A DNA stretch of 64,000 bases from IMG/VR virus record IMGVR_UViG_3300029776_000155, one strand, 5' to 3'. Origin of the DNA: a virus. Both the position numbers and the translations under genes were made by a program. Under the pieces are notes generated by a model that searched no databases, was not told the origin of the DNA, and was given only the letters and a program-made list of their open reading frames with translations. Shown piece after piece: positions 1 to 59,334 of the stretch (positions within the stretch are counted from its first letter, which is position 1; every line of letters starts with the position of its first letter).

Positions 1-352
1 TCTCCTTTTTTATTATTCCCTGCTTTAGCGTTTTTCTATTCCCTTTTTATATACTTCCATTTATCGCTTTCTGCTGCCGTGCAACCTGCCGTGGATTGAA
101 TTTTTCCGCAAAGGTAATCGCCAGTCCCAGTCGTGTCAATGCCGGCATTCTGCCGCGAGTGAAGTGCAAAAATCTTCCTCTCCGCTGGTGAGCGTATTTT
201 TCCTCTTCAGCCTTGCCAGATTGTTCCTGCCACCTTTGGATGCAGAAAAAATCATCCCGGAGGTCGCAAACAGGCCGAATAGAGGGAAAATAAAAAATAT
301 TATAAACTAAGGTAACGGTAGGACTAACCACCTGCCACAAAAAGAATTTATT

Positions 353-766
353 ATGTTATACGTTCACACAATTGGTCGCATTGGCAAGGATTGCCAGGTT
401 ATTACTGGAACACACGGTTCATTCATCGCATTTGATATGGCGGTAGATGACTATTCACATGGAAACAGCGTCACTACTTGGGTAAGGGTACGGAGTAAGA
501 AAGAGAACCACATTCGACTATCCGAATACCTGACCAAAGGACGGTTACTGCTCATTGAGGGGACACTGTCGGCTTCACAGTGGAAGGATAAGGATGGAAA
601 CTGTCAGATGCAACTATCCATTACGGCAGACACATTGGAGTTCATCAATACCGGAAAGCGGGAGGAAACAACTTCAGAAGCAGGTAGTCCGACGGATGCC
701 ACAAGCGATGTATCTGTACCACCGGTAGCTATGCCACAAGAGAACAAGGAAGACTTGCCGTTCTGA
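353..766 (+). CDS. single-stranded DNA-binding protein-like (OB-fold)
   Basis: 137 aa. OB-fold SSB-like pattern (IGRIGKD...TTWVRV...GRLLLIEGTL...WKDKDGN...ADTLEF). Preceded by a partial copy of the ~245-bp upstream repeat. Position fits the leading region of a conjugative element. Confidence 0.55.
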   Translation: MLYVHTIGRIGKDCQVITGTHGSFIAFDMAVDDYSHGNSVTTWVRVRSKKENHIRLSEYLTKGRLLLIEGTLSASQWKDKDGNCQMQLSITADTLEFINTGKREETTSEAGSPTDATSDVSVPPVAMPQENKEDLPF

Positions 767-789
767 TGATGTGCATATAGTGTTGATAA

Positions 790-960
790 ACAATATATAC
801 TAAATGTAGTATTTACTAATTATAGTAAAGTAGTGAATTACCTATTAATGAAAGTAGTATTTACTACATTTAGTTTGTTAGTATTTTAGTATAGTAGTAA
901 ATACTATAATACTAAAATACTCTTTTTAGCAAAATAGTATATACTAATTATAGTATTTAC
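790..960. repeat. cluster of at least 5 near-palindromic ~12-bp iterons (TAGTATTTACTA / TAGTAAATACTA) upstream of the parA-like gene
   Basis: The motif recurs at about 804, 852, 893, 935 and 950 in both orientations within an AT-rich tract. A centromere/parS-like or oriT-associated binding array is plausible. Confidence 0.6.
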
Positions 961-1004
961 TAAGAATAGTATTATCTTTGTATTGCATATAAAGACATCA
1001 AGTT

Positions 1005-1760
1005 ATGGCAAAAATTATAGCTGTTTTGAATCACAAGGGTGGGGTTGGCAAAACGACTACCACCATCAACCTTGCCGCTGCTTTGCGGCAGAAGAAAAAG
1101 CGTGTACTGGCTATCGACATGGACGGTCAGGCAAATCTCACAGAATCATGTGGTCTCTCCATTGAGGAGGAGCAGACGGTGTATGGGGCAATGAGAGGTG
1201 AATATCCCTTACCGGTTATCGAATTGGAAAACGGACTTGCTGTTGTGCCGTCCTGTCTCGACCTGTCGGCAGCAGAATCCGAACTGATAAACGAGCCGGG
1301 ACGTGAGTTGATACTGAAAGGTTTGATTGCAAAGTTGCTTGACAGTCGGAAGTTTGACTACATCCTGATTGATTGTCCGCCCTCACTGGGTTTGCTGACA
1401 CTCAACGCCCTTACCACGGCGGACTTTCTGATTATTCCGGTACAGGCACAATTCCTCGCTATGCGCGGAATGGCGAAGATTACAAGCGTGATTGAGATTG
1501 TTAAGGAACGCCTGAACCCGAACCTGAGTATTGGCGGCATTGTTATTACTCAGTTCGACAAGCGCAAGACACTCAACAAAAGTGTAGCTGAAATTATCAA
1601 TGACTCTTTCTGTGACAAAGTGTTCAAAACGATTGTGCGGGACAATGTGGCACTGGCCGAAGCTCCTATAAAGGGAAAGAATGTCTTTGAATACAATAAG
1701 AACTGCAACGGAGCCAAAGATTATATGGCTTTGGCACAAGAGGTTTTGAAATTAAAATAA
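1005..1760 (+). CDS. traA: ParA/MinD-family ATPase (CTn TraA-like)
   Basis: 251 aa. Deviant Walker A KGGVGKTTT, D(M)DGQ motif and ParA C-terminal region. Lies directly downstream of the iteron array. Confidence 0.85.
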   Translation: MAKIIAVLNHKGGVGKTTTTINLAAALRQKKKRVLAIDMDGQANLTESCGLSIEEEQTVYGAMRGEYPLPVIELENGLAVVPSCLDLSAAESELINEPGRELILKGLIAKLLDSRKFDYILIDCPPSLGLLTLNALTTADFLIIPVQAQFLAMRGMAKITSVIEIVKERLNPNLSIGGIVITQFDKRKTLNKSVAEIINDSFCDKVFKTIVRDNVALAEAPIKGKNVFEYNKNCNGAKDYMALAQEVLKLK

Positions 1761-1766
1761 GGCAAT

Positions 1767-2021
1767 ATGGGCAAGAGTGATTTATTGAAAGACAGCATGA
1801 AAAGCGGACTGGACGGATTGCTGTCATCCACGAAGAAATCTCCGCAAAAGAAGGAAACTACACCGGTTAAGACAGAAAAAGAGCCTGCTGTACATTGCAA
1901 TTTTGTTATTGACAAGAGTGTTCATACGCGTATGAAATTCCTTGCTATTGAGAAGAATATGTCATTGAGAGATATTGTAAATGAGGCGATGAAGGAGTAT
2001 TTGGAAAAAAACGAGAAGTGA
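1767..2021 (+). CDS. DUF3408-like small protein (CTn TraB-like, RHH-like C-terminus)
   Basis: 84 aa. Lys-rich N-terminus followed by HTRMKFLAIEKNMSLRDIVNEAMKEYL. Translationally coupled 7 nt after the ParA-like gene, the partner position typical of CTnDOT traA-traB. Confidence 0.5.
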   Translation: MGKSDLLKDSMKSGLDGLLSSTKKSPQKKETTPVKTEKEPAVHCNFVIDKSVHTRMKFLAIEKNMSLRDIVNEAMKEYLEKNEK

Positions 2022-2090
2022 GGTATGTTCCTCGCTTCCCGTTCTTTTAAGTCTGTGGCCTTTGTTAGTATGTTATACTGATATGTGTTG

Positions 2091-3410
2091 CTACATATCA
2101 TTCATTGACAGCCCTTTGTATGACAGGGTATAACCTTTGAACTCTCCCGTTGCACGCATGAAAGCGGCTGCTTTCGCTTCCAGTTTTTCCATGTCGATAT
2201 TTTCGGCCTTGCGTTTGACTTCGAAAAATGTCGCTGTATCGTCCAGTTCGTTTTCGGCTACTATGTCTATTTCGTTCTCACCCTTGCGGTCCCACCAGCC
2301 ACCGATGCGCGTATAGGCTTGCTGTTCTATCAGCACACGCTTAAAGTAACGTTCAAGCATCAGACCGCTGAAAGTTTCATAATCCCGGCCTATAATCATC
2401 TTCACACTCCCATAGTTCTCTATCTCCAGCATATAGCTGTACTTGTAGATAAAGCGGAACCAGAACGTGAAGAAATTGTCCTCGATGATATACCGGACAT
2501 TCTTGGCGGAACTCTTCTCGAACAACGGTTGTTTCTTCGATATGATTTCGTATTCTTTCTCCAGCTTGGTAAGATAGCCGCCGATTTCCTTGCCTACCAC
2601 GTTCTCAATTTCCGAACGGGATGTTTTTCCTCGTGCAATGGCCGACAGTATGGAAAAATAGATTCCGTAATCCTTGCCGAACTCTTCGATAAGAATCGCT
2701 TTACCCTCCCCCAGAAATATGGAGTCGGCCTTTATTATCTGGTCAAGCATAGCCGTTTTAGTTGTTGCTCCTGCATCCACGAGTAGTTGCACGTACTTCG
2801 CCACGCCGCCCGTGAAAGCGTACAAGGCCAGCAGATCTTCCGCCGTGTAGCCGGGATTGTATTCCGAAAGAATATCTTTCAGAACAGTTGGAGTAAACGG
2901 ACGCACGGTCATAAAGCGCGACTGCCGGTTATACAACGGCTCTTTCTTATCCTTGAATATCTTTGTCATCATAGAATAAATCGAACCACAGACAATCAGA
3001 TTGATGTGGGACTTCGGGCTGTATAGGTCCCAGATGCGCTGCATATCGCTGAACACCGATTTGTTCACACGGAAAAACTCCTGGAACTCGTCGATAAAGA
3101 GCGTGATGGGACGTTCTGCCGAAAGTTTCATCAGGAACTCGAACACATCGGTGAAATGTTCGGCCCGTCCCATGGTTGGGACACCCAACTTGTTCTCTAT
3201 CTCAAGCCGGTAGTCCTCACACAAATCGCCTTCAGCTTTCCGGGCAACAAAGAAATAGAGAATCGGTTCGTCCTCGTATGCCTTCCACACGAGTGATGTC
3301 TTACCGATACGGCGACGTCCCGTTACCACTGTAAACTGAGCATTGTCTTGGGCCATTTCGCGAATCTTGCGAAGAGAGGCTATTTCTTCTGTTCTGTCAA
3401 AAAATCTCAT
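2091..3410 (-). CDS. AAA+ ATPase (archaeal-ATPase/DUF234-type ATP-binding protein)
   Basis: Walker A GRRRIGKTSL and Walker B LFIDEFQ, followed by the C-terminal DUF234-like region. The start was moved to the internal Met (MRFFDRTEEI) typical of this family. The track ORF extends to 3488. Confidence 0.7.
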   Translation of the reverse strand: MRFFDRTEEIASLRKIREMAQDNAQFTVVTGRRRIGKTSLVWKAYEDEPILYFFVARKAEGDLCEDYRLEIENKLGVPTMGRAEHFTDVFEFLMKLSAERPITLFIDEFQEFFRVNKSVFSDMQRIWDLYSPKSHINLIVCGSIYSMMTKIFKDKKEPLYNRQSRFMTVRPFTPTVLKDILSEYNPGYTAEDLLALYAFTGGVAKYVQLLVDAGATTKTAMLDQIIKADSIFLGEGKAILIEEFGKDYGIYFSILSAIARGKTSRSEIENVVGKEIGGYLTKLEKEYEIISKKQPLFEKSSAKNVRYIIEDNFFTFWFRFIYKYSYMLEIENYGSVKMIIGRDYETFSGLMLERYFKRVLIEQQAYTRIGGWWDRKGENEIDIVAENELDDTATFFEVKRKAENIDMEKLEAKAAAFMRATGEFKGYTLSYKGLSMNDM

Positions 3411-3413
3411 ATT

Positions 3414-3470
3414 CTTATCCTTTTTTATTGCCGTTTCCGAAACGGCTGTTTCCGAAATGGTTGTTTCGCT
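3414..3470. promoter_or_regulatory. palindromic/direct-repeat operator-like element (GTTTCCGAAAC x2-3) immediately upstream of the ATPase start
   Basis: The sequence ccgtttccgaaacggctgtttccgaaatggttgtttcg is read directly from the window. Confidence 0.3.
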
Positions 3471-3693
3471 ACTGCAAAAGTAATGCAAATTTCCGGTAAA
3501 ACAGGCAATTGATACAGATTTATTTAGTAAAATGGCTCAAAGGATTTTTGGCTGGTAAGCTCCATTCCTGTTTTACACCGTCTGGTCTTACGCCCTTCCG
3601 CTTGTCCCGTTGTATCGTTTATCATCCCTTTATAGTCCCATCGGTTTTACCATCCGCCTTTCGGCGTATTCTTCCTTTTCTATTTCTTTTAAT

Positions 3694-3940
3694 GTCACTC
3701 ATCCGGTCCATTCCTGCCATCGCCGGTTGGTTTTCCAGACGCAAAGGTGGACTGCCGCGCTTGATTCCGTCGCTTTGAAGTGCATTTCCTATAAAATTCT
3801 TCCTTTCTGCGAAAGAGTAATTTTCCGGAAAAAGCGTCGGAAATCGCTTATTCGTCAGTCCTTGTAAAGCATCTGTAAATCCCAAGCGGTTCAGGCAGAA
3901 AAAAGAACCGAACAAAGGGAAAATAAAAAATCAAATATTA
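3694..3940. repeat. ~245-bp non-coding repeat, copy A (upstream of the ParB-like gene)
   Basis: About 90% identical to 5957-6210. A partial third copy lies at about 190-310 upstream of the ssb-like gene. Each copy sits immediately 5' of a plus-strand gene. Confidence 0.8.
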
Positions 3941-3956
3941 AACCAATTAAATTTTT

Positions 3957-5702
3957 ATGATTATGGAAGCAACAGCAATTCAATCAGTAGAGAAAAACAT
4001 CACAATGGTAGCATTGGCAAATGTGCAACCGAGCAATTACAACCCACGCAAGAATTTTGACGAAGCGAGCCTTGTGGAACTTTCCGAAAGCATTCGTCAG
4101 CAGGGTGTGTTACAGCCAATAGGAGTACGCCCGATAGAAGACAACCGTTTTGAGATTGTTTTTGGAGAACGTCGATACCGAGCCTCCCTAATGGCAGAAT
4201 TGGAAGAAATTCCAGCTATCGTTATGGAAATTTCAGACGAGGTAGCCGAAGAAATGGCTGTCACTGAAAACCTCCAACGTAAGGATGTCACCCCGATTGA
4301 GGAAGCCAATGCCTACCAAAAGCTCATAGATAGTGGTCGCCATGATGTGCAGTCTTTGGCAGTGCAGTTCGGCAAGAACGAGAACTATATCCGCACACGC
4401 CTTAAATTCGTTTCCCTAATTCCCGAAATCGCACAGCTTTTGGAGCAGGACGAAATCACAATCAGCGTAGCGAGCGAAATCTGTCGTTACGGTGAAGATG
4501 TTCAGAAAGATGTGTACGACAAACACCTCAAAGAAGATGCACTGCATCATAGTTGGCGAGGGATGAAAGCTACCGAAGTCGCACGGAACATCGAACGGCA
4601 ATATACCACCGATTTGGAGCGGTACGCATTTGACAAGACCCTCTGTCTGTCCTGTCCTCACAATACAAATAATATGGTGCTGTTCTGCGAAGGTGGTTGT
4701 GGAAATTGCGCCAATCGTACTTGCCTTGCTGAAATGAATGCGGCATACCTCACAGAGAAAGCCGTGCGCCTTATGGAAGAACGTCCCGATGTTCCCCTCT
4801 GTCATGAAAATACTGGCTACAATGAAATCGTAGTAGAACGCCTTACTGCTATGGGGTACGAAGTGGAACGTCTTAATTGTTATGCGAAAGCATATCCCGA
4901 ACAGCCCGAAGCACCCTTAAAAGAGGATTACGATACTGCCGAAGAATACGAGCAGGCACAGAGCGAGTACGAGCAGGAGTTGAACGATTACACGGAGAAA
5001 TGCGAGGAAATCCGCACCCGATGTGAAGCAGGTGAAATCATCCTCTATTTCCGTGTTGAGAGCAAGGATATTGTACTTTGTTATATGACGAAAGTCACCT
5101 ATGCCTCTAATAGTACAAATCAAGAGCAGACACTTTCTCCAATGGAGAAATTGGAGAAACAAGACAAGCGTAACAAGGAAATTGTTCTTGAAAAGACTGT
5201 AGAGGACACAAAAAAACAGATTTTGGAAGTTGATATGTCCGAGTGCAAGTTTGGGCAAGACGAGGATAAGATGATTTATTTCTTCTTGTTATCATCCCTC
5301 CGCAAGGAGCATTTTGAAGCAGTAGGTATCGGAGAAAAAAAGCCTTATTGCCACCTTACGGATGAAGAAAAGATAAACATCATCGCCAACCTCACGAGCA
5401 AGCAGAAAGCGATTATCCGCAGGGATTTTCTAATTGCTAATTTCAAGAACGCATACGGCAGCAATGCCATTGCATCCCTCTTGCTTGACTTCGCACAAAA
5501 ACATATGCCCGACCTGTTGGCAGACATCAAGAACGGACATAATGAAGTGTATGAGAAGCGTCACCAACGTATCGAAGAGAAAAAAGCCGTTCTTTTGGTG
5601 CAGGAACAAGCAAAGCAGGAAGCGGAGCAATCTGACAAACAGCAATCCGAAGCAGGGATGCAGACCGAAGAACAGCCACAAGAGGAAGATATTGCAGCTT
5701 AA
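3957..5702 (+). CDS. ParB-like nuclease domain protein (long, Cys-rich middle, acidic C-terminus)
   Basis: 581 aa. The N-terminal ParB/Srx domain reads NPRK...LSESIRQQGVLQPIGVRP...FEIVFGERRYRA, with an HTH-like region after it. A C4-like cysteine cluster and a Glu/Gln-rich tail follow. Confidence 0.75.
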   Translation: MIMEATAIQSVEKNITMVALANVQPSNYNPRKNFDEASLVELSESIRQQGVLQPIGVRPIEDNRFEIVFGERRYRASLMAELEEIPAIVMEISDEVAEEMAVTENLQRKDVTPIEEANAYQKLIDSGRHDVQSLAVQFGKNENYIRTRLKFVSLIPEIAQLLEQDEITISVASEICRYGEDVQKDVYDKHLKEDALHHSWRGMKATEVARNIERQYTTDLERYAFDKTLCLSCPHNTNNMVLFCEGGCGNCANRTCLAEMNAAYLTEKAVRLMEERPDVPLCHENTGYNEIVVERLTAMGYEVERLNCYAKAYPEQPEAPLKEDYDTAEEYEQAQSEYEQELNDYTEKCEEIRTRCEAGEIILYFRVESKDIVLCYMTKVTYASNSTNQEQTLSPMEKLEKQDKRNKEIVLEKTVEDTKKQILEVDMSECKFGQDEDKMIYFFLLSSLRKEHFEAVGIGEKKPYCHLTDEEKINIIANLTSKQKAIIRRDFLIANFKNAYGSNAIASLLLDFAQKHMPDLLADIKNGHNEVYEKRHQRIEEKKAVLLVQEQAKQEAEQSDKQQSEAGMQTEEQPQEEDIAA

Positions 5703-5956
5703 CCATAATCACTAACTAACGAATAGGGGGTAGAGTAATCTGTCCTCTATTCGTTCCTAATTCAATGAAAGTGAAGATGTTCACGGACAACTGCTCCAAG
5801 CTGTTGTCGGGCGGCGCGTCTGTCGGGCAAACCCGCCATCCGCGCGATTATGCCTTTTCTATTCCATTTATAGCTACCTCCCGATACCCCGCCGCCACCC
5901 GTCTCCATTTATACCTATCAGTTTCCTCCTTTTTATCTTTTTTATCTTTTTTATCT

Positions 5957-6210
5957 TATTCCTTATCCGGTCCATTCCTGTCCTCGCCGGTTGGTTTTCC
6001 AGATGCGAAGGTGGACTGCCGCGCTTGATTCCATCGCTTTGAAGTGCATTTTTATAAAATTCTTCCTTTCTGCGAAAGAGTAATTTTCCAAAAAAAGCGT
6101 TGGAAGTAGCTTGTTCGTCAGTCCTGTAAAGCATCTGTAAATCCCAAGCGGTTCAGACAGAATATAGAACCGAACAGAGGGAAGAAAAATAAATCATTAA
6201 AATTTCACGA
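5957..6210. repeat. ~245-bp non-coding repeat, copy B (upstream of the 6213 ORF)
   Basis: Direct repeat of 3694-3940 at about 90% identity. The small ORFs 5765-6028(+) and 5874-6134(-) lie inside it and are probably artefacts. Confidence 0.8.
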
Positions 6211-6212
6211 CA

Positions 6213-6488
6213 ATGGACAACATCAAAGAAAGCAAAGAGTACAAACTTGCCAAAGAATGGGAAATGGCAGTGAATAGTTTTAGTTTCAATCCCAAGCGTT
6301 TTGCAGCCGCTATACCTGATATGCACCCCACACTGCAACAGAGCCTCTATAGGTTGTTTAAGGAGTGCAGCATTGTGATGGCGGACGAGACACGTCTCTA
6401 TGATGACCGCAATCGTGCATCACATGAAGAAGCAAAGTGTCTTATGGAATACCTCAAGACAAACGGAAAGCATATCCCATTAAAATAA
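6213..6488 (+). CDS. hypothetical small protein (leading-region cargo)
   Basis: 91-aa ORF directly after repeat copy B. No recognisable domain. Confidence 0.4.
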   Translation: MDNIKESKEYKLAKEWEMAVNSFSFNPKRFAAAIPDMHPTLQQSLYRLFKECSIVMADETRLYDDRNRASHEEAKCLMEYLKTNGKHIPLK

Positions 6489-6503
6489 TAAAATAACAAG
6501 CGT

Positions 6504-6776
6504 ATGAAAACACAAGAAGTACAATTTGGCGGCAATAACTATCCTTGCCGTGTGGTGGAATCCAACGAGGGTGAAGAACTCCTTATCGGCTCGACTACCT
6601 TGCTCGATGCCCTTCAGCCCGGTAGTTTCAACGATGAAAACGAAGGCTTCGCAAGCAAGGAAGCCGAAAGAATCTATAACGAGGTTTTCTTCTTTACCGA
6701 TAGGGCAAACTTACGACTTACAGACGTAGAACTGGTTGCCGAACTGAAAAAGGACAACCCGGAATGGTTCGAATAA
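6504..6776 (+). CDS. hypothetical small acidic protein
   Basis: 90-aa ORF on the same strand, in the same tight array as 6213-6488 and 6811-7185. Confidence 0.4.
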   Translation: MKTQEVQFGGNNYPCRVVESNEGEELLIGSTTLLDALQPGSFNDENEGFASKEAERIYNEVFFFTDRANLRLTDVELVAELKKDNPEWFE

Positions 6777-6810
6777 AAAAAACAATAATCATCTTAAAAA
6801 TAGCACAGTT

Positions 6811-7185
6811 ATGGAAAAAGAGTATGTAATGCAAATAGCACAGACCATTAAAGAGCAGTTAATAGGACTTACCCCTATGCCCGTCCTCATGTCATGGAGT
6901 ATCTCAGAGCTTGCAGCCACCATCTTCAAAGATCTGCCTGCACTTCGTATCAAAGTAAACGGACTGTTACACGCCGGATACGTTATTATTGCACTTAATG
7001 GGTCAGATTATTATGAGGTATATCTGTTGAAAGACAAAGATGTAGAGTGTGTCAATGAAGAAGTTTGTTTCAACGAGTTAGGGGATGTCATTGACAGGGC
7101 AATTGAATGCGGTACTGACAAAGAGAAATACGAAAAAATTTGCCATCAGCAACTCACCAAATTATTAAGCGGGCAGTTCTCCTGA
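6811..7185 (+). CDS. hypothetical protein
   Basis: 124-aa ORF. Last member of the plus-strand array before the convergent T4CP gene. Confidence 0.4.
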   Translation: MEKEYVMQIAQTIKEQLIGLTPMPVLMSWSISELAATIFKDLPALRIKVNGLLHAGYVIIALNGSDYYEVYLLKDKDVECVNEEVCFNELGDVIDRAIECGTDKEKYEKICHQQLTKLLSGQFS

Positions 7186-7277
7186 TAAACTGGGAGAAGA
7201 GATTAGTAGTAAACCGTCAGTACGATTGTACTGGCGGTTTTTGTTCTTCTTATATCTTATATCAGACAGCCGGATTT

Positions 7278-9464
7278 TTATTTCGCGTTGCGCTTGTTCT
7301 GAACGTCCTTTATCATCTCTTTCACATCTTGCCCCACTTGTACGAAGTTTTTATATAGGATGCGTTCCCGTTCCTCTCTCGACTTGAAGGTGTAGAACTT
7401 CGGCAGCGGCACATACGCCGCTTCCTCTTTCTTGATTTCTGCCATATCAAAATCTGTTTTGCAGAAGAACTTTGTAGTCTTGAACTCTTCCGATTCTTGA
7501 ATATTCATTGAGCCGCCCATACCTGTTTTCGTCTTCACAAAATCCCGTGCCGTCTGACCGCATATCCATCCGGTTGCCATATCCGAGATTTTCGAGGCAG
7601 GCACAAGGTTATCCATATTTTCATTGAGATTGATACTTGTTTTGTCCCGGTCAATGGTCACGCCTTTTTTGACCTGTACCACCTTGCCGAAGATGTCATT
7701 GGACAACCATTCCAGCGTTTCTTTAGCGCGTGCCGAGCCGCTTACCACATTGCCTACCGTCGTAATGATTTTTTGCATACCTACCTTACCATAATCGGCT
7801 TCCAGTTGCGGTAGTTCCTGAAAGCCGAGCGTTACACTCACCTTATTGCTTCGCGCCGTACCTATCAGACGGTCTATTTTGTGAAAGTAGAGTGTCGGTA
7901 ACTCGTCCACTATAATACTCACGGGAATATTTTTCCCCTGCCCGGTATTCACACGGGTAACGAGGCGGTTTAGGATAAGAGCGTTCAATGCGCCGATGAT
8001 GGACTCCATTTCCGGGTCATTTGCAATCAGCAGGTAACTCGGATTCTTCGGGTCACTCACCTTCAGGTCGAAGTCATCGCCATCCCGGTGGAATATCCAG
8101 TAGCTCTCTTTGGTTGCCAGACGCGAGGTATAAACACGTAACGTGCCAATCATACCCTCCAGTTGCTCCATTGCCTTATTTTTGAAGGCTGTCTGGAACG
8201 GACCAAGTAGCGGAGCAACCTCATTGTCAGTTTCCAATACCTCGAAAATCGTCTGATAACTTTCATTTAAGAATGACAGAATATGTGGCATGTCCGAATA
8301 CTTTCCCAGCCAGTAGGCAGGTTCCACGATATTGCCGCCTTCACGGTCACGCACGATACCTGTCGGTTTCCAGAATTTGGTCTGCGGATCTTGCTGTCTT
8401 TCCGCATATAGAGGCTTGCCGTTGGCATCGTAGGGTTCACGCTCATAATTCACGAAAAAGTAGATACAGGCGGCAAGGAAGTTTACCGCCGAGGTTTGGA
8501 AGAACTGGTCGCTTCCGCCGCCGCCCTCTTTCTTACCCTTTTGTAGGCTTTCCAATAATGTTTCCGCCGTTTCGCTGGCCGCCGCGAGGTTGTTGATGTA
8601 CTTTGCCTGAATTGGATTCACCCGACGGCTGTACTCCACATCCACAAAATTAATCATGTTGAACTTACACCCTTTGGGTACTCTGCCCAGTTTCTCGTTC
8701 CTCTTGTAATGGTAGTAGAGCTTGGTCGCCAATGTCGGAAACTTGTAGTCATACACCACCATGGCGAAACCTTTGGCCGAATGCTGTCGGATAAACGGCT
8801 CTATGATACTGAAAGTCTTGCCCGACCCCGGTGTTCCAACTACCCATGTTCCTCTGAAGCAGTTGCTTACAGAAATCCATCCCTTGCGGAATTTACCCTT
8901 ATAGTAGTACCGCATGGGGATATTTACGCTGTATTCATTCTCGACTTTTTCCTCACATTGTTCAAAACTTTCATTCTCGAAGTTGAAACGGTCTTTCATC
9001 AGTCCCTCCTTGATGAACTTTGAAATGTTGTCTAATGCAATATGTACCAGTACTACGCCAGCAATGGAGGCAATCATATAGAGAATGATATTCAAAGGTA
9101 AGGTATAAAGCCTTGTTCCCATCGTATGGCCGAACATCCATACGGAGATTACGAGCAGCAACAACCCACTCGTCAATGGATACACCACCTGCCGGCGTGC
9201 GTTGAACTCCAGATGCTTCTTGTTCCGCGTTCCGACACAAGTGATGCAGATAAGCAGTACCGTCGCAATTTTGCTGTACACAAGATTGCCGTCGTGGTAA
9301 ATCATCCATTGTTTGATGCGTCCGTGAATGTCGGTTAGTATGCCGCCCCAGTGGTCGAGCATTGCAGGGTCAATGGCATATTCAAAGAACTCCAGCAGTA
9401 CGGACACATATACCACTGTGCGGAATATTTTATAGAACCCTTGCAATTCCTTACTTTCTTCCAT
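7278..9464 (-). CDS. type IV coupling protein (VirD4/TraD/TraG-family T4CP; MobC-like in Bacteroides CTns)
   Basis: 728 aa. N-terminal transmembrane segments, Walker A GTPGSGKT, TraG/VirD4-like core and Walker B IIVDELPT. Confidence 0.85.
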   Translation of the reverse strand: MEESKELQGFYKIFRTVVYVSVLLEFFEYAIDPAMLDHWGGILTDIHGRIKQWMIYHDGNLVYSKIATVLLICITCVGTRNKKHLEFNARRQVVYPLTSGLLLLVISVWMFGHTMGTRLYTLPLNIILYMIASIAGVVLVHIALDNISKFIKEGLMKDRFNFENESFEQCEEKVENEYSVNIPMRYYYKGKFRKGWISVSNCFRGTWVVGTPGSGKTFSIIEPFIRQHSAKGFAMVVYDYKFPTLATKLYYHYKRNEKLGRVPKGCKFNMINFVDVEYSRRVNPIQAKYINNLAAASETAETLLESLQKGKKEGGGGSDQFFQTSAVNFLAACIYFFVNYEREPYDANGKPLYAERQQDPQTKFWKPTGIVRDREGGNIVEPAYWLGKYSDMPHILSFLNESYQTIFEVLETDNEVAPLLGPFQTAFKNKAMEQLEGMIGTLRVYTSRLATKESYWIFHRDGDDFDLKVSDPKNPSYLLIANDPEMESIIGALNALILNRLVTRVNTGQGKNIPVSIIVDELPTLYFHKIDRLIGTARSNKVSVTLGFQELPQLEADYGKVGMQKIITTVGNVVSGSARAKETLEWLSNDIFGKVVQVKKGVTIDRDKTSINLNENMDNLVPASKISDMATGWICGQTARDFVKTKTGMGGSMNIQESEEFKTTKFFCKTDFDMAEIKKEEAAYVPLPKFYTFKSREERERILYKNFVQVGQDVKEMIKDVQNKRNAK

Positions 9465-9467
9465 AAG

Positions 9468-10205
9468 TCAGTCTGTTATTGATCCTTGTTTTATACGATA
9501 CCAATGATTGCCTACTCTGATTACATCCATACCGAACCATGCACCATTCTCGTTCAGTTTTGTTTTTATCTTTTCGAGTGTTACCGGACCGACACCCCAT
9601 ATTTCCATGAGATATTGCTCGTTAAGATGAATCAGGTCTCCGATATATAATATTCCATGAGATTCAAGATGGCTTTTGATGGATGGGGTAATACCCAAAC
9701 TGAATATCGGTTCCGAGAGATAGTGTACTTCTTCTGCTTGAATGTTATTCAGGGCTATTTCAAGTCCCACTTTGATTCTTTTGAGAAAATCAAGGCGTTC
9801 TTGTATCTTTTGGATGGCAAGCTCGTCTTGCTGTATCTCATTGCGTAACTGGGTTGCTCTCTTTACAAGTTCGGCATTACTTCTTTTCAATTCTTCATTA
9901 ATATCCGCCATTGACAGATTGCTTATTTCAAGTTCATTTCGTGTGCGGTCCAATTGCGTGACAAGTTCCTCCAGTCTGTCGGCATGACACTTCAGTATTG
10001 AATTTTTTTCATTATCGGCAGCCATTTCGTCCAAAAGGTAGCCGAACCTTTTAATTTGAAAATTAATATTTTCTTTATCCGATGCTATGGAATCTGCGAG
10101 TTTTGCCAGTCTTTGCCGGCATGAATCACCTTTCATAGACTTATACATGAGGACAATTCCCAATATCATCAACGCTATGCTGAAAAGTATATCCGTATCT
10201 TTCAT
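9468..10205 (-). CDS. membrane-anchored coiled-coil protein with RNA polymerase alpha-CTD-like helix-hairpin-helix C-terminal domain
   Basis: One N-terminal TM segment, a long heptad-rich region, and a C-terminus IGDLIHLNEQYLMEIWGVGPVTLEKIKTKL resembling the alpha-CTD HhH. Confidence 0.5.
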   Translation of the reverse strand: MKDTDILFSIALMILGIVLMYKSMKGDSCRQRLAKLADSIASDKENINFQIKRFGYLLDEMAADNEKNSILKCHADRLEELVTQLDRTRNELEISNLSMADINEELKRSNAELVKRATQLRNEIQQDELAIQKIQERLDFLKRIKVGLEIALNNIQAEEVHYLSEPIFSLGITPSIKSHLESHGILYIGDLIHLNEQYLMEIWGVGPVTLEKIKTKLNENGAWFGMDVIRVGNHWYRIKQGSITD

Positions 10206-12661: not shown

Positions 12662-13849
12662 TTAGTTCCTTTTTTCCTGTCCGTTCACCAAATACACGAA
12701 AGTTCCGTATTTCAGCTTGACTTTGTTTTTCTTGATAGCTTTGCTAATGGCATTGCTTGTTTTCTGGTAGGCATTGTTCACCGCCTGCATCCCCCATTGT
12801 GCAAGGCTGTTTCCTGTACTTCCCATACTCATGTTCATATTGCCCGACATTGCCCCGCTTGCTACATCCTTGCTCGTTTCCCGGAATTGGCTGTTGGGTA
12901 CATACAACCCTTCCATGCCATCTGTATCATAGAGTGACAGACTCACTTTCACCAGTTCGTCATTCACGAGGATGCTGCTGATATTACCTTTCACGCGTCC
13001 GGATGAGAATCCGCTCACTGTAGCGTACAGGTACGTTCCCCTTGCTACCACACACTCGCCAATCTCCACATCGTCAAGCAGGCGCAACCTCACGCGCGAG
13101 CCGTCCACCGCTTTGATGTTCTCGTCAATGATGGCTTGGATGAGTTTCGGTTCACGTACATTCTTCGACAGTGTGTTAAAGTAGTCCGAGGTTGTCTTCA
13201 CCTTGCGTACCACCTCGCTGGGTGGTTCGTCCGCAGATGGCGTTTTCACAGCCCGGCTCTCTTCGTTGATGGTTCCGGAGGCTGTTGCTCCTTGTGGTGG
13301 AGCAATGTTGGCCGTGTCCGTTTCTGCCGGGGGGACAGTCGCATTTTGCCCTCTCAGTCTCGCCTCTGCGAGTGCTTTTTCCAGTTCGGCAAGTGCTTCC
13401 TGTTCTCGTGTCTTGGCAGAGGCAATTTCCGCTGCCGCAGCTTTTTCCTGTTGTTCTTCAGTGAGCAGGTCGATGTCGTCCTGCGTGTATTTCGATTCAT
13501 ACTCTTCCTTGTTTTTATCGGGTTCTTCCCGGTCTATGTTATCTACTGCGGAGTAGTCCTGTATCTTACCCCATGATTTCGCCATATTCTCGTATTTGCT
13601 GCCTATGCCATCGTCCTTGATCTGTGCCCCCGGCAATTCGGGGTTCAGGAACTCCGTCGTCTGCAACGCCTTGTCTTGTATTTCTATCGTTTCTGTCTGA
13701 AACAGGTCGAAGATGAAATAAGACGCGCCGAGCAGGGGGAAATAAAGGATGGCGGGAAGCATATATTTCGGCTGGCGAAAATTGATTTTCTCCAATATCT
13801 TCATTATACATCTTTTAATTGAGTTGTACATACTTGCCTTCAATGGCAC
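12662..13849 (-). CDS. traM: conjugative transposon protein TraM-like
   Basis: 395 aa. N-terminal TM segment, central Ala/Glu-rich coiled-coil linker and conserved C-terminal domain. Position follows traK-traL as in CTnDOT. Confidence 0.65.
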   Translation of the reverse strand: MPLKASMYNSIKRCIMKILEKINFRQPKYMLPAILYFPLLGASYFIFDLFQTETIEIQDKALQTTEFLNPELPGAQIKDDGIGSKYENMAKSWGKIQDYSAVDNIDREEPDKNKEEYESKYTQDDIDLLTEEQQEKAAAAEIASAKTREQEALAELEKALAEARLRGQNATVPPAETDTANIAPPQGATASGTINEESRAVKTPSADEPPSEVVRKVKTTSDYFNTLSKNVREPKLIQAIIDENIKAVDGSRVRLRLLDDVEIGECVVARGTYLYATVSGFSSGRVKGNISSILVNDELVKVSLSLYDTDGMEGLYVPNSQFRETSKDVASGAMSGNMNMSMGSTGNSLAQWGMQAVNNAYQKTSNAISKAIKKNKVKLKYGTFVYLVNGQEKRN

Positions 13850-14303
13850 AATTTCTCAGTATCTCTGCGTTGTCTTTTCCGAAAGCTAACAGGAGGCTAC
13901 CGCAACCGGGAGAGTCACCTCGCGTTCCGTCTGGTCGGTAGAATCGGATGCGGTGGCGTAGGAATTTCATTCCTGTTGCTTTTGGGAAGATGACGTCCTG
14001 AAACATTTTGGAATCACAACGGTTGAATAATAATGCAATGCCGTTGCCATGTTCTGCCAGTTTCCGGACGAATAGCTCGATAAGAGGACGCGAATAGGGA
14101 GGATTGAGCCACACACGTCCTTCCCATATCTGGGACAACCCGTCTATGTTCTGATCATACATGACCTCGGCAGTCGGCCACAACGGACGGATAGGAGCGC
14201 AAGGGTCAAGGTCGAATTTGCCCAATGCGTCCAGTATCTCCTTTGGCGTGTACCATTCGTCTGACGAACGGACTGATTTTTCAAACCGTGTATTCATAAG
14301 CAT
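13815..14303 (-). CDS. DNA N6-adenine methyltransferase, phage Dam-type (PF05869-like), orphan
   Basis: 162 aa with WYTP...VWLNPPYS catalytic motif. No restriction-endonuclease partner nearby. Embedded in the tra operon. Confidence 0.75.
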   Translation of the reverse strand: MLMNTRFEKSVRSSDEWYTPKEILDALGKFDLDPCAPIRPLWPTAEVMYDQNIDGLSQIWEGRVWLNPPYSRPLIELFVRKLAEHGNGIALLFNRCDSKMFQDVIFPKATGMKFLRHRIRFYRPDGTRGDSPGCGSLLLAFGKDNAEILRNCAIEGKYVQLN

Positions 14304-17721: not shown

Positions 17722-18492
17722 TTATTCCACATTTCTTTTTATATTATATTCATTTCTAATCCTTTCCTCTCCCCGCGAGAAGTGCATGTCATCCTTTTCA
17801 ATACAAATACATTTTCTATTCGTATGAATACAGGCGATTGCAGTGCTCATGCTTCCAGAGGCAAAATCAAGGACTGTGTCACCCTCTTTCGTGTATGTTC
17901 TTATCAGATATTTCAATAATGCGACTGGCTTTTGATTAACATGAATCGTTTTGCCCTCTGATTCCGCAGTTTTGAAATATTTCACACTTCGTGGGTATCT
18001 CGTTCCTTTGTTTTCATTTCTGAATGTAGGATTTGGTACCTTGTTTACTCCTGTCCAGTTACTCCCTCTCTTTGTACGATTTTCATAAGGCTCACCTTCT
18101 TCCATGATTGGATAATAAGGAGTTCTGCCGTTACAAAAGATACTGATTAGCTCATGCGCTTTTAGAGGTTGCTTTTTAGCAAGAAGGAAATTGCTTGCTT
18201 TTGACTTTTCCCATACCCAGTCATATTTAAATTCGGCTAAATTGCCACAGCGTAAAAGGCTGCTGAACGGTTCGCTGCCAAATAAAGCCGTAGGCGCATT
18301 ATCCTTTCTCACCCTTCTAATCTCCTCCCACATTTTCGAGAATGGTATTATCTTATCCCATTGCGAAGCTGTAATTCCAAAAGGTGGGTCGCATAGAACT
18401 AAATCAATACTTGATTCTGGGAGAAGAGGCATTACTTCAAGGCAATCGGCTTTATATAGCGTAATGTCTTTTGCAAAAACGATCTTTTTCAT
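17722..18492 (-). CDS. DNA methyltransferase (N6-adenine/N4-cytosine, DPPF motif), orphan
   Basis: 256 aa. Motif IV LVLCDPPFGI near the N-terminus and SAM-binding FASGSMSTA near the C-terminus (beta-class order). No adjacent endonuclease. Confidence 0.8.
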   Translation of the reverse strand: MKKIVFAKDITLYKADCLEVMPLLPESSIDLVLCDPPFGITASQWDKIIPFSKMWEEIRRVRKDNAPTALFGSEPFSSLLRCGNLAEFKYDWVWEKSKASNFLLAKKQPLKAHELISIFCNGRTPYYPIMEEGEPYENRTKRGSNWTGVNKVPNPTFRNENKGTRYPRSVKYFKTAESEGKTIHVNQKPVALLKYLIRTYTKEGDTVLDFASGSMSTAIACIHTNRKCICIEKDDMHFSRGEERIRNEYNIKRNVE

Positions 18493-25774: not shown

Positions 25775-28590
25775 TTAGGAAAAGGCACGCCCCAACCACC
25801 ATCATAATCTTCTTCTTGACATCCTGTTCCTCGTTGTGTGGGCTAAGCACCCAGCGCCATACCCACCTTGCGGTGGGCGGTTTCCGAGTACTCGCCCCCA
25901 AACCGTACTTACATGTCTCCATGTATACGGCTTTCCATTAGTAATATTACTCTTTACCATAGTTCTGAATCATTGAGTTGCAATCCTCGCAGACAACAAG
26001 TGTCTTGCGATGTCTTTTGAGCATCAGTTTCTCCCACTCATTACAGCCTTTCAGCTTGGTGAGATTTCTCACATGGTGCATGACTACTTTTCCTTCCTTG
26101 CCACATAGTTCGCATCTGCCATCCTTCAACCTTTCTACAAGGCTTGGATATGGCACATACATGGTCTGTGGCAGTTTGTCATAGTCAACATCGAACTGCG
26201 CATTTCTCTTTTTGAAACCTTCATTATAGAAGACTCTGTACTTCTGTTTACCCTTAGCGTCATTGTACGGAATGACAAAATCCTTGTCCTTCTGATACTT
26301 TTGGCGAACCTTCCTTGCGGAAGTGTTCAGCTTCCAGCCAAGTGTCTTGAACATACTCATCTTCATGATGAAGGCAAAAGATGCACATTCTTTGGACACG
26401 TTTGTAGCAAGTGAATAGTAGTTGTAAAGTCCTCTGATTTCCGCATTGTATTGTGCAAGAATATCCTCGGGCTTCATTGGAGTCATATATCTGCGAGGCT
26501 TAGACCACCAAATGTCTTTGCCGTCAATGTTTCTGACCTCCAAAGCGTTGTATTCAGTGAGCTTCTTTTGTATCACAGCCGAGTTAAGGGTTAACACCAC
26601 TGCGCCGTTGAAGTCTCTTTTGAGTACTCCGTCCTTGTTCCTTTTCACTGCGTCTGACTTTCTGATGAAGATTTCATATCCAAGGAATTTTGCCTTGTCT
26701 TGTGCATGTGTTATCAAAGTTTTCTCGTCAGACAATTCAAGTTTGAGTTGTTCTCTCATGAATTGGGTGATGTCCGCTTTGATGGTCTCGCATTCAGACT
26801 TGCTTCCGATAACCGATATGAGGAAATCGTCCGCATACCTTACATACTGCAATCTTCTGAAGTCTGCATCCATTGCATCCTTGTGAGGAATGGACAGCAT
26901 CTGTTTGCTCAGTTGGGCAATTTCATACAGATAGCTTTTCCGCATCTGCTCATCAGACGTTTTCTGCAACTTCTGTTTCAGTCTGTTCTTCTTATTGTTC
27001 AAACGCCAGTAGTCGGGATTGATGCTGCGTCTGTCACCTTTGCGGAATTTGGCTGCGTACTCCTTGATGTACTTGTCGAACTTGTCAAGATAGATGTTAG
27101 CCAATATAGGGCTTACAATTCCACCTTGCGGAGTTCCTGAATACGTCTTGTTGTACTTCCAATCCTCCACATACCCTGCATTGAGGAATTTACGGATAAG
27201 CCTGAGGAAGCGTTCGTCTGATATGCGCTCACGAAGTATGCTTATCAGTACATTGTGGTCGATGTTGTCAAAGAAGCCTTTGATGTCTCCCTCGATAAAC
27301 CACTTTGCTCCCGCAAAAGACTTCTGTATCATACCCAATGCCGTGTGGCAGCTTCGGTGCGGTCTGAAACCATGTGAAGTGCCTTCAAAATGACCTTCAT
27401 AAATGGCTTCAAGCAGCAGTCTAACTACCTCCTGCACCAATTTGTCCTCGAATGAGGGAATACCGAGCGGACGTTTCTTGCCGTTCTTCTTCGGTATGTA
27501 CACTCTGCGTGCAGGGTGGGGTTGGTAACTTTCGTCCTTTAAGGACACAATCAATCTTTCAATCCTTTCAAGACTCATCTCGTCGATGGTCTTGCCGTCA
27601 GTGCCGGGTGTCATGTTGCCTTGTTTCGCATAAATGCGTTGGTAGGCAACAGCGAACATCTCTTCACTGAACAGATACCGATACAGCCGTTCGTACTTAT
27701 AATCCGAACTTTGACTGTGGTCACTTAGAGCTTTCAATACTCTTTCTGATTTTTCCATACGTCTTACACGTTTTCAAAATTTGTATTAAAACATTACTAA
27801 CTGTTCCCCTTCGCCATGTACAAGGCGTTACCTTGCTCGGACTACTATGGGAACTCCGTTACCATATTGGATATTCAGAGCCAAAACTCATAGCCACTTG
27901 CATGGCTTTCCAACTTAGGTAATCTCCGTTTAGCTGCATGATAACTATTAGCACGACAGATTGTCGGATACGACTTCCGCCCTTTTCTCCGCTTATTGCG
28001 GTTGCGTTGTGGCAGGTTCTTTGCTATAACACCAATGACGTTGTCTAAGTGCCACAATGCGACGTTTGTAAAAGCCTTCCGTCGCAGCTACATCTTTTGC
28101 CGCTGGGCTATCGTTCAATCAGTATGGACTTTATCCTCATATCTGTCTTTCTCCCTCGCAATTCAGTCGCAGTCTGGCTATTGACTGACTTATTGCTTTC
28201 CCAAAGTGCTATTTTCACCTTTAGGTTTCCCCTCGGGCTTATTTGGGTGGAAGTAGGTCACTTGAACCCTGACCTAACCTCTTGCAAAAGAGGTATTTAT
28301 CATGCAACCACTACGGACGCACTCATGGCGATATATACCGAGATTGCACCCACGATGGCCACAACGCCGGCAATGGCGTAGCACAATTTCACCATAATAG
28401 GCACATACTTGGCAATCTCCTCCGCGACAGTGGATAATGCGCTCGTACCGGCGGAATAGTCGCCTGCGGAGTTCTGCGCTTTCGCCACCATGCCGGACAG
28501 CAGCATGAAGGAGAACATCATTACTTTGGTAGGGATTCCGTTGACGAATCCGAATGCCTTGCGGCACAGTTGTTTGGTTTTCTGAAACAT
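25728..28590 (-). CDS. traE: traE-like (DUF4134) pilin gene interrupted by a group II intron. Exon 1 about 28324-28590, exon 2 about 25728-25835
   Basis: Exon 1 encodes signal peptide ...AKYVPIMVKLCYAIAGVVAIVGAISVYIAM. Exon 2 encodes NEEQDVKKKIMMVVGACLFLIAAAQALPLFFGINA. Joined, they align over the full length with the intact paralog at 28645-28971 (...IYIKMNTGEDGITKSIMTLVGACLFLIGA...FFGYRI). Confidence 0.7.
25836..28322 (-). mobile_element. bacterial group II intron (about 2.49 kb) with intron-encoded protein
   Basis: 5' end GTGCG at 28322 on the minus strand. Domain V AGCCGUAUACAUG-GAGA-CAUGUAAGUACGGUU at about 25901-25933, with a short hairpin and the CCCACAC 3' end after it. The RT-maturase-HNH ORF lies in domain IV. 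Boundaries are accurate to about 1 nt. Confidence 0.85.
25947..27758 (-). CDS. group II intron reverse transcriptase/maturase with C-terminal HNH endonuclease
   Basis: 603 aa. RT blocks PKKNGKKRPLGIPSFEDKLVQ, FRPHRSCHTA, FIEGDIKGFFDNIDH, QGGIVSPILANIYL and YVRYADDFLI. Maturase X region is present. C-terminal CELCG...HHVRNLTKL...CEDCN HNH/zinc motif. Confidence 0.9.
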   Translation of the reverse strand: MEKSERVLKALSDHSQSSDYKYERLYRYLFSEEMFAVAYQRIYAKQGNMTPGTDGKTIDEMSLERIERLIVSLKDESYQPHPARRVYIPKKNGKKRPLGIPSFEDKLVQEVVRLLLEAIYEGHFEGTSHGFRPHRSCHTALGMIQKSFAGAKWFIEGDIKGFFDNIDHNVLISILRERISDERFLRLIRKFLNAGYVEDWKYNKTYSGTPQGGIVSPILANIYLDKFDKYIKEYAAKFRKGDRRSINPDYWRLNNKKNRLKQKLQKTSDEQMRKSYLYEIAQLSKQMLSIPHKDAMDADFRRLQYVRYADDFLISVIGSKSECETIKADITQFMREQLKLELSDEKTLITHAQDKAKFLGYEIFIRKSDAVKRNKDGVLKRDFNGAVVLTLNSAVIQKKLTEYNALEVRNIDGKDIWWSKPRRYMTPMKPEDILAQYNAEIRGLYNYYSLATNVSKECASFAFIMKMSMFKTLGWKLNTSARKVRQKYQKDKDFVIPYNDAKGKQKYRVFYNEGFKKRNAQFDVDYDKLPQTMYVPYPSLVERLKDGRCELCGKEGKVVMHHVRNLTKLKGCNEWEKLMLKRHRKTLVVCEDCNSMIQNYGKE

Positions 28591-58730: not shown

Positions 58731-58804
58731 GGACCGGTAGCTCAGTTGGTCAGAGCAGCAAACTCATAATTTGAAGGTCAAGAGTTCAATTCTCTTCCGG
58801 TCCA
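58731..58804 (+). tRNA. tRNA-Met/Ile2 (anticodon CAT)
   Basis: Cloverleaf folded by hand. Acceptor GGACCGG/CCGGTCC, D-arm GCTC..GAGC, anticodon loop CTCATAA, T-arm AAGAG-TTCAATT-CTCTT. Confidence 0.75.
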
Positions 58805-58872
58805 CACCACATAGGTTATTTAGTAGTAGTAGTATTCTTCCCCCAATTCGTTGTGAAATGCGTTGGGGTGTT

Positions 58873-58946
58873 GTTCTGGTAATTCAGCAGGTTAGAATGC
58901 GACACTGACACTGTCGAAGTCGGTGGTTCAAGTCCATCCCAGAACA
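58873..58946 (+). tRNA. tRNA-Val (GAC)
   Basis: Acceptor GTTCTGG/CCAGAAC, anticodon stem CGACA/TGTCG with loop CTGACAC, T-arm GGTGG-TTCAAGT-CCATC. Confidence 0.7.
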
Positions 58947-59334
58947 CACGGTTTACAACGTTCTTTGACATTTTGAAAAAAAGAGGAAGCAATGTGCTAT
59001 GAAGTTTTCATATAACTTCATGGAAACAACTGTAAACGAACCGGTCACCGTTGCACATTGCCTTTATTCCTCAAATCAAATGTTTCGTTCTTGCAGATTT
59101 TCGCTACCCACAATGGTACCAAGTTGTGTGACCGGCCACGAAGGTGATGCTGCAAGATACGACCGTTATTTTTGACTGGGTTTAACGGCGACCCTTAACC
59201 TCGGCTATAAGGAGCCTTATCTCCTTTATAAGCCACGCCAATGCGCAGATTGGCAAGGTTATATTCAACAACGTTTCCATTGCGGTTGCAAAGTTAAGAC
59301 TTTTAGTCAAAAGCCGGTGAAAATCCGGCAATTT

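Follow-up and report, generated by a model that had tools for sequence, protein, structure and literature searches.

Candidate single-stranded DNA promoters of a Bacteroides type in an integrative and conjugative element of Bacteroidales

By means of single-stranded DNA (ssDNA) promoters, which have been characterized in plasmids of the E. coli type, the SSB, anti-restriction and anti-SOS genes of a plasmid are expressed before the recipient is able to attack the incoming DNA. Gene exchange in the human gut is centred on the Bacteroidales, which rely on another primary sigma factor, and the stretch of DNA analysed here (IMG/VR virus record IMGVR_UViG_3300029776_000155, 64,000 nucleotides, hereafter the window) raises the question of whether their integrative and conjugative elements (ICEs) carry promoters of this kind. 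The window holds three copies of a repeated element of about 300 bases, designated A, B and C, each of which precedes a plus-strand gene. We conclude from comparative sequence analysis that these elements are probably a Bacteroides-type analogue of the Frpo/ssi ssDNA promoters, followed by a stem-loop in the 5' untranslated region (UTR) and an A-rich start region.

A repeated element with a hairpin on the template strand

Copies B and C are identical at 228 of 261 aligned columns (87%, 4 gap columns; 3676-3935 against 5940-6197), the alignment consisting of three gap-free blocks, and at 222 of 256 columns when compared over 3694-3940 and 5957-6210, the segments chosen by a first-pass annotation of the window. 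The repeat recognized in that annotation is therefore real, with an identity slightly lower than the 90% or so that it had estimated, while its partial third copy at about 190-310 proved to be a full-length, diverged copy at 36-330. A hidden Markov model (HMM) of three sequences detected copy A at 147-309 (E=7e-6); its plain identity to copy B is 58%, against 49+-1.5% for shuffles, and a relative 81% identical to it was found in B. finegoldii (NZ_OY725888, 104965-105220). Copy B has 99.3%-identical copies in records of B. finegoldii, P. distasonis and P. massiliensis that come from one strain collection. All three copies lie just 5' of a plus-strand ATG (at 353, 3957 and 6213), as first described. 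The open reading frames (ORFs) that fall within the copies, at 47-340(-), 3622-3915(-), 5765-6028(+) and 5874-6134(-), are non-coding by-products of the repeat, as had been supposed for the last three, because related copies differ by indels of 1-2 nt (alignment A2); a coding reading of the repeats was rejected on this ground.

The family was collected by pattern scans, a scan of species-representative genomes and iterated nhmmer searches, the last of which recovered diverged copies missed by plain repeat finding on a B. finegoldii locus (L001). It comprises 177 elements in the fetched loci, with 101 unique sequences in about 28 subfamilies less than 85% identical to one another. Elements are present in 51 of 107 genome loci, all of them from Bacteroidales (Bacteroides, Phocaeicola, Prevotella, Segatella, Xylanibacter, Leyella, Mediterranea, Parabacteroides, Duncaniella and Rikenellaceae) except for two otherwise-labelled contigs from metagenome-assembled genomes and two unclassified loci. 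The other 56 loci, like about 7 of 20 viral matches, matched the two-box pattern by chance in other phyla and held no element by the HMM. The two otherwise-labelled contigs, L055 (Oscillibacter) and L078 (Mailhella), more likely reflect mis-binning than cross-phylum transfer. A search of window positions 1-7300 against Rfam gave no match at the gathering score and nothing relevant at E<=10.

The relation of the elements to genes is regular. They are co-oriented within every locus, and in about 165 of the 177 cases an ATG ORF on the same strand begins directly at the 3' end of the element. The proteins encoded there fall into 17 families, among them SSB, ParB-like, DUF1281_C/Api92-like, LPD11, DUF4313 and DUF2958-like proteins and a large N6-methylase, together with many that have no family assignment, on which PHROGs shed no light. 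Within arrays the elements are spaced at one per 0.7-1 kb, and most array genes are followed by a terminator hairpin, so that a gene and its element form a separate unit. In the B. finegoldii locus L001, which holds a 73%-identical copy, the array consists of small plus-strand genes in a row, about 450 nt apart; a serine recombinase gene adjoins it.

On the minus strand, which is the template of the downstream gene, all 27 subfamilies examined (<85% identical) fold into an imperfect hairpin of 180-250 nt with z-scores of -2.1 to -8.2; in copies B and C it measures about 185 nt as ssDNA. The minus fold is stabler than the plus fold in 21 of the 27 with DNA parameters (mean -4.3 kcal/mol) and in 26 with RNA parameters, and the latter count places the wobble pairs on the minus strand. 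A covariance model built from the B-type alignment scored about 190 bits on the minus strand and 23-39 bits on the plus strand overall (192.8 against 23.2 bits for copy B, 189.6 against 35.7 for copy C). Among 33 B-type copies (alignment A2), 89.5% of the cells of the 58-pair hairpin were paired, compared with 38-52% when the partners were slid; 22 of the 58 pairs had changes on both sides, compared with 14.3+-1.7 in shuffles (0/500), and compensatory cells numbered 115 against 38.5. There were 101 G:T cells and 34 A:C cells, in a structure that was itself derived from the minus strand. The model made from B-type copies (R1) recovered other subfamilies weakly, at 21-32 bits, and because the palindrome's reverse strand gave matches to it as well, alignment A3 was excluded from the pair counts. 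The extended imperfect hairpin anticipated in the first-pass annotation is thus present, carries compensatory changes and is stabler on the template strand. This fold is supported by covariation, and the covariation together with the strand asymmetry argues against both a plus-sense RNA leader and a protein-binding palindrome.

Promoter boxes and a proposed mechanism

The consensus of the Bacteroides primary sigma factor consists of a -7 box, TAnnTTTG, and a -33 box, TTTG (PMC7366714). The most conserved stretch of the family, read on the plus strand as TGCAAAGGT(A), is the reverse complement of TAnnTTTG, and the corresponding box TGCAAAGGTA is exact in 46 of 96 unique copies and one or two changes off in the others. 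Of 16 non-B subfamilies, 15 also have a TTG, mostly cTTG, on the minus strand, 17-22 nt 5' of the -7 box. Plus-strand TAnnTTTG occurs 7 times, scattered over the 96 copies, which is background, and in 17 intergenic regions of one ICE the minus strand carries 11 occurrences of the combination TTG-N17-23-TAnnTTTG and the strand of the gene carries none. A scan for the sigma-70 consensus, which is not relevant to Bacteroides, remained at background level.

The -7 box also keeps a regular position within the minus-strand hairpin: it is always close to the base of the 3' arm and points outward into the gene. It tends to be mismatched, with a mean pairing probability of 0.30-0.62 at box positions 1-7, and its final G and the next three bases are paired with a probability of 0.99-1.0. 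Opposite the predicted start, the right-arm motif GCAGAAAAAT is conserved in most non-B subfamilies, and B-type elements have the conserved sequence GCATCTGTAAA. The hairpin is followed 3' by a small stem-loop, the stem of which covaries between subfamilies and the loop of which, on the plus strand, often reads GAAA or UAAA, then by an A-rich box, GGGAAAATAAAA, and 20-55 nt further on by the ATG. Since the small stem-loop resembles an RNA-level 5' UTR, it fits a plus-sense start located 5' of it.

Other conserved motifs were observed in the family: an apex motif, AAAATCTTCC...G(A/T)GTA(A/T)TTT, found across loci and in the window at 166-200, 3791-3823 and 6054-6086; in non-B subfamilies, CCTTGCC in the right arm; and, at a distance of 60-80 nt to the left of the -7 box, the 5' box CCYTTTTATAG, which the window has near 42-55 and 3668-3690.

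From these observations we infer the strand transferred, its use by RNA polymerase, the start site and the timing of expression, as follows: (i) during conjugation, the ICE strand antisense to the element genes (minus in the window) would enter the recipient as ssDNA, and 180-250 nt of it would snap back into the imperfect hairpin; (ii) the 3' arm with TTG-N17-22-TAnnTTTG, the -33/-7 boxes of sigma-ABfr, would act as the non-template strand and the 5' arm as the template, the mismatched -7 box resembling a pre-opened bubble next to 4-5 bp that are always paired; (iii) RNA polymerase would start a few bases past the box, pass through the basal stem of about 25-30 bp and continue out along the transferred strand, producing a plus-sense mRNA with the short stem-loop, the A-rich box and the ORF; and (iv) synthesis of the complementary strand would abolish the hairpin and leave the boxes facing the other way, so that sense expression would stop. 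The RNA may also prime complementary-strand synthesis, as it does for Frpo.

Position on the ICE and alternative explanations

In the first-pass annotation the window copies were proposed as candidate promoters of a first-transferred leading region. The three copies stand; a leading-region location is not supported. No relaxase was found in the window with Pfam, NCBIfam or tblastn with MobV, and in this ICE type the MobV relaxase is encoded 30-70 kb upstream of the window copies, beside a second, larger array of elements. In 16 loci, which include relaxases 55-85% identical, the array is followed on its own strand by the MobV gene 5-7 kb downstream, and the sister array L001 (1861-8272) sits 5.5 kb upstream of mobV. 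In the B. finegoldii record, chromosomal genes extend to about 61 kb and are followed by array 1 with an SSB gene (64-71 kb), a recombinase gene, five packed genes and mobV at 76 kb; further elements stand directly after mobV/ompA, 5' of two hypothetical genes and 5' of a gene for a 1,345-aa N6-methylase, and T6SS (type VI secretion system) genes then lead toward the window. Xylanibacter muris has both arrays on one contig and the same strand, with array 1 at 141.6-142.7 kb, the relaxase start at 136.2 kb and the SSB/ParB array equivalent to that of the window at 98-103 kb. The ICE thus carries at least 16-17 elements over 100+ kb, all of them oriented like the relaxase gene; the minus-strand operons for the type IV secretion system (T4SS) and the T6SS have none. 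An origin of transfer (oriT) is mostly found just upstream of the relaxase gene, which enters last. If this holds here, the minus strand would be the transferred strand and would template all element genes; array 1 would be the true leading region, and the window copies would enter in mid-transfer yet still be single-stranded.

This layout admits a broader version of the proposal, which we put forward tentatively and regard as rather doubtful: an ICE-wide regulon of at least 16 one-gene cassettes, with the hairpin promoters serving as a topological switch that gives a sense pulse at each transfer and antisense silencing thereafter. The SSB, ParB-like and methylase genes and the establishment or anti-defence genes of no known function would then be sense-transcribed wherever they lie on the ICE, and after second-strand synthesis the same boxes would fire antisense into the upstream cassette.

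Several observations weigh against the elements being ssDNA promoters: (i) the B-type subfamily, copies B and C included, has no -33 TTG and mostly GA or CA in place of the TA of the -7 box (CAccTTTG in copy B, CAccTTCG in copy C), so that the -33/-7 boxes suggested for the hairpin at first reading are borne out in copy A and in nearly all non-B subfamilies and are weakest in the very pair on which that suggestion centred, and the B-type copies may be weak promoters or may have a different mode of action; (ii) in double-stranded DNA the consensus boxes form an ordinary leftward promoter, which alone could explain their conservation; (iii) the -7 box was part of the two-box pattern used for collecting genomes and of the anchor regular expression, so that its apparent conservation is inflated, with box position 1 and the -33 being the parts not selected for; (iv) the subfamilies are homologous, and the counts are therefore of non-independent events; and (v) the window copies are far from the relaxase and do not form a classical leading region.

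The hairpins could instead be single-strand origins or priming sites of the sso/ssi kind, which would make only a short primer for discontinuous duplex conversion of an ICE of 100+ kb, the proximity to genes being secondary. The spread of the elements at intervals over the whole ICE, and not just beside the relaxase, agrees with this, as do the Toprim/DnaG-like primases encoded by the ICE, the priming of the complementary strand by Frpo transcripts and the discontinuous conversion of an incoming strand. A priming site, however, would not be expected to abut an ATG or to carry a conserved UTR stem-loop and A-rich start box, and the density within arrays is far above what priming needs; the CS-6 motif of ssoA (TAGCGT/A) was on the minus strand in only 2 of 28 subfamilies, and RSB was not searched for. 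We consider priming unlikely to be the sole role of the elements; since Frpo does both, it is compatible with ssDNA promoter activity.

Also improbable, and to a similar degree, is that the boxes are simply leftward promoters of double-stranded DNA, yielding RNA (antisense or non-coding) directed at the upstream gene or driving minus-strand neighbours, with the palindrome put to another use, for example as the minus-sense RNA hairpin in which the next antisense transcript ends. The full consensus does sit on the minus strand, the wobble pairs of that strand suit a minus-sense RNA equally well, and in a few places there is a minus-strand gene to the left (the DUF234 ATPase in the window; histone H1 and a hypothetical gene in L146). 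In most arrays, however, a plus-strand gene ends to the left of the element with its terminator. Such a promoter gives no reason for a box in the 3' arm of a hairpin, at a fixed distance from its base and with the -7 mismatched, and it leaves unexplained the abutment to plus-strand ATGs, the shared relaxase orientation and the strand asymmetry. A leftward promoter could coexist with ssDNA promoter activity as its off state.

The small stem-loop at the 3' end and the long 5' UTRs known in Bacteroides might suggest that the whole hairpin is an RNA structure, such as an attenuator or a processing or stability signal, in a long plus-sense leader transcribed from further upstream; this is hard to credit, as the plus strand folds worse even with RNA parameters in all subfamilies but one, has no TAnnTTTG upstream, matches no Rfam family and is parted from the preceding gene by terminator hairpins. 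Least credible of all is a mobile or recombination sequence, whether a miniature inverted-repeat transposable element, an insertion sequence remnant or an attC-like ssDNA cassette site, for which one can cite the imperfect palindromes, the co-oriented arrays between small ORFs, the recombinase gene beside the L001 array and the greater likeness of copies B and C than of their genes, suggesting gene conversion or duplication: the copies (a remnant of this sort was what the first-pass annotation had named as its refutation) are highly diverged and co-oriented, their occurrence is confined to ICE contexts, 5' of the same gene families, the 56 pattern matches outside Bacteroidales lack the element, no target duplications, transposase or IntI-type integrase were seen, and the elements stand 5' of genes and after terminators, unlike attC, which is 3' of its cassette.

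Comparison with known systems, the wider locus and significance

Single-stranded promoters of the Frpo/ssi type were reportedly described by Masai and Arai in 1997. The Frpo/ssi/ssp sequences of F and ColIb-P9 are hairpins that rebuild -35/-10 boxes, drive early expression of ssb and psiB and are switched off by second-strand synthesis, and Frpo also primes synthesis of the complementary strand (PMC9849209; bioRxiv 10.64898/2026.01.09.698686). The Bacteroidales elements resemble them in being non-coding, about 300-480 nt long, repeated and situated 5' of ssb and establishment genes, and in having on the putative transferred strand a long imperfect hairpin that rebuilds host promoter boxes and templates the genes. 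Within F's leading region, genes for a methylase, antirestriction, SSB, a ParB-like protein and PsiB point to oriT, in the orientation of traM/traJ/traI; here, too, the element genes are oriented with the transfer genes, and the content of ssb, ParB-like, methylase and small unassigned genes parallels that region, as had been remarked. On the other hand, the boxes are those of sigma-ABfr (TTG/TAnnTTTG) instead of the -35/-10 of sigma-70; there is one element per gene, spread over the ICE even past the relaxase, compared with 2-3 Frpo in the leading region; the elements come with a conserved UTR stem-loop and A-rich box; and the host is a Bacteroidales ICE with a MobV-type relaxase. The Frpo2 region of F, a 479-nt gap upstream of F ssb, folds into a hairpin of about 310 nt that is stabler on the minus strand; the hairpin is clear, its -35/-10 were not placed with confidence, and we make no claim of identical promoter geometry. 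Homology to the Frpo of F or ColIb was not found by blastn (word 11) in 5,426 complete E. coli genomes and plasmids. Given this lack of similarity and the boxes of another sigma factor, the elements are not members of the Frpo group by homology.

The ssoA and ssoU origins of rolling-circle plasmids and sso1 of ICEBs1 are orientation-specific hairpins that are active as ssDNA and have boxes recognized by RNA polymerase in the stem. The present elements share the orientation-specific long imperfect hairpin with promoter-like boxes in the stem; the sso, unlike them, makes a short primer, is usually single-copy, does not stand at a gene start and has RSB/CS-6 motifs. Plasmids of the pLS20 family, for which a single-stranded promoter and control of establishment genes are reported, are alike in outline in that establishment genes of a conjugative element are expressed early in a non-proteobacterial host; the phylum, the sequence and the regulatory details differ. 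A large survey of leading regions based its search on Frpo homologues and sigma-70-like boxes and makes no mention of Bacteroidetes (PMC11541004). Our full-text literature search returned no description of such promoters for Bacteroides or Bacteroidales, in agreement with the initial impression that the arrangement is undescribed there.

Table 1. Elements, genes and other features of the window, with positions counted from its first letter
Feature	Position	Strand	Basis
Element copy A, diverged subfamily, whole element	36..330	+	family HMM, nhmmer 143.5 bits
Copy A, long imperfect hairpin	78..263	-	DNA-parameter minimum free energy -36.9 (minus) vs -24.9 (plus) kcal/mol, z=-5.2
Copy A, promoter consensus: aTTG (136-139), 20-nt spacer, -7 box TACCTTTG (109-116)	109..139	-	regular expression match at 139 and aligned view
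Copy A, putative plus-sense transcript start, GCAGAAAAA opposite TTTG-CGG-AAAAA of the other arm	242..250	+	inferred from hairpin geometry
Copy A, 3' box GGGAAAATAAAAAAT after small stem-loop (about 261-275); ATG at 353	284..298	+	
SSB gene, directly 3' of copy A	353..766	+	Pfam SSB PF00436, 1.4e-12
16-bp-periodic direct and inverted repeats with TAGTATTTACTA core, between ssb and parA	788-987		
ParA	1005-1760		
ParG/RHH-like protein	1767-2021		
DUF234 ATPase	2091-3488	-	
Element copy B, B-type subfamily	3670..3979	+	nhmmer 202.5 bits
Copy B, long hairpin, apex about 3806-3810	3712..3894	-	minus -43.6, plus -38.0, z=-3.9
Copy B, degenerate -7 box CACCTTTG, in 6x7 internal loop, no -33 TTG	3742..3749	-	fold and alignment
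Copy B, putative plus-sense start region GCATCTGTAA, pairing partner of TTTG-CGTCTG	3869..3878	+	inferred from minus-strand fold
Copy B, 5'-UTR stem-loop CGGTTC...GAACCG (3887-3910) and box AGGGAAAATAAAAAAT (3916-3931)	3887..3931	+	
ParB-like gene, 581 aa, directly 3' of copy B	3957..5702	+	Pfam ParB_N 7e-31, HTH_ParB
Element copy C, B-type subfamily	5933..6230	+	nhmmer 176.5 bits
Copy C, long hairpin	5976..6156	-	minus -41.5, plus -38.0, z=-4.25
Copy C, degenerate -7 box CACCTTCG, differing from TAnnTTTG at two positions	6006..6013	-	alignment
Three small ORFs (91, 90 and 124 aa) 3' of copy C	6213..7185	+	ORF list
Terminator hairpin after the three small ORFs	7211-7240		
245-aa protein beside the coupling protein, RNA polymerase alpha C-terminal-domain-like	9468-10205	-	Pfam RNA_pol_A_CTD, 6.5e-07
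DNA methyltransferase genes within the T4SS operon	13815-14303 and 17722-18492	-	
Group II intron in the T4SS block, with 603-aa reverse transcriptase/maturase/HNH ORF	25838-27758	-	Rfam Intron_gpII 57 bits

The window contains the right-hand third of a Bacteroidales ICE (Table 1), and as a T6SS locus lies to the left of it, the ICE is one of the T6SS-carrying ICEs of gut Bacteroidales. The repeats between ssb and parA look like the centromere or operator of the partition module. The ParB-like protein also matches the NCBIfam PRTRC ParB-like family (5.8e-50, under the cutoff). A member of the 91-aa ORF family comes after the ParB-like gene in 13 fetched loci, and the three ORFs 3' of copy C, put forward in the first-pass annotation as candidate anti-defence or establishment genes, had no match in Pfam or PHROG; the gap behind them (7185-7278), tried as a candidate oriT, contains a terminator hairpin and no obvious oriT. 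The minus strand then encodes a coupling protein and a Bacteroidetes-type T4SS (TraN, TraM, TraK, TraJ-like, TraG), which is interrupted by the group II intron; in the B. finegoldii half of the ICE another ltrA stands beside the N6-methylase gene. One of the two methyltransferases of the T4SS operon matches Pfam N6_N4_Mtase, and for the other the P. distasonis copy has the annotation N6-adenine methyltransferase. The RNA_pol_A_CTD-like gene is curious in an element that seemingly depends on unusual promoter use. Genes for a primase, a helicase-like ATPase and a tyrosine integrase (33.2-34.4 kb) close the ICE part. The remainder, 35000-64000, is probably a separate prophage-like element, with small plus-strand ORFs in one direction, six clustered tRNA genes (58731-60278), a DUF7666/collagen-repeat protein and an ExoX-like protein, and no hairpin elements were found in it.

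Two observations bear on how the elements spread. Copies B and C precede unrelated genes and are nevertheless 87% identical (compared with the orthologous copies in L043, L053 and L080), and the SSB gene has an A-type element in this ICE and a B-like element in others; both facts suggest that elements were swapped between cassettes or underwent gene conversion. One subfamily precedes a gene for a 97-aa protein; its distance from an 85%-identical MobV is about 7.3 kb, and its scores with the family model are the same or nearly so (105.2-105.4 bits) in some 20 species (loci L029, L030, L034, L037, L052, L056, L064, L070, L076, L079, L081, L089, L102, L114, L121, L125 and L134), which points to a very recently spread element.

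To conclude, if the elements act as proposed, they would provide a sequence signature by which early-expressed genes for establishment and anti-defence, most of them without a known function, could be recognized in Bacteroidales ICEs, the widespread T6SS-carrying ones among them. Expression from transferred ssDNA would then be a mechanism that arose with a different promoter grammar, and the distribution of the elements would suggest that early genes need not sit in the leading region.

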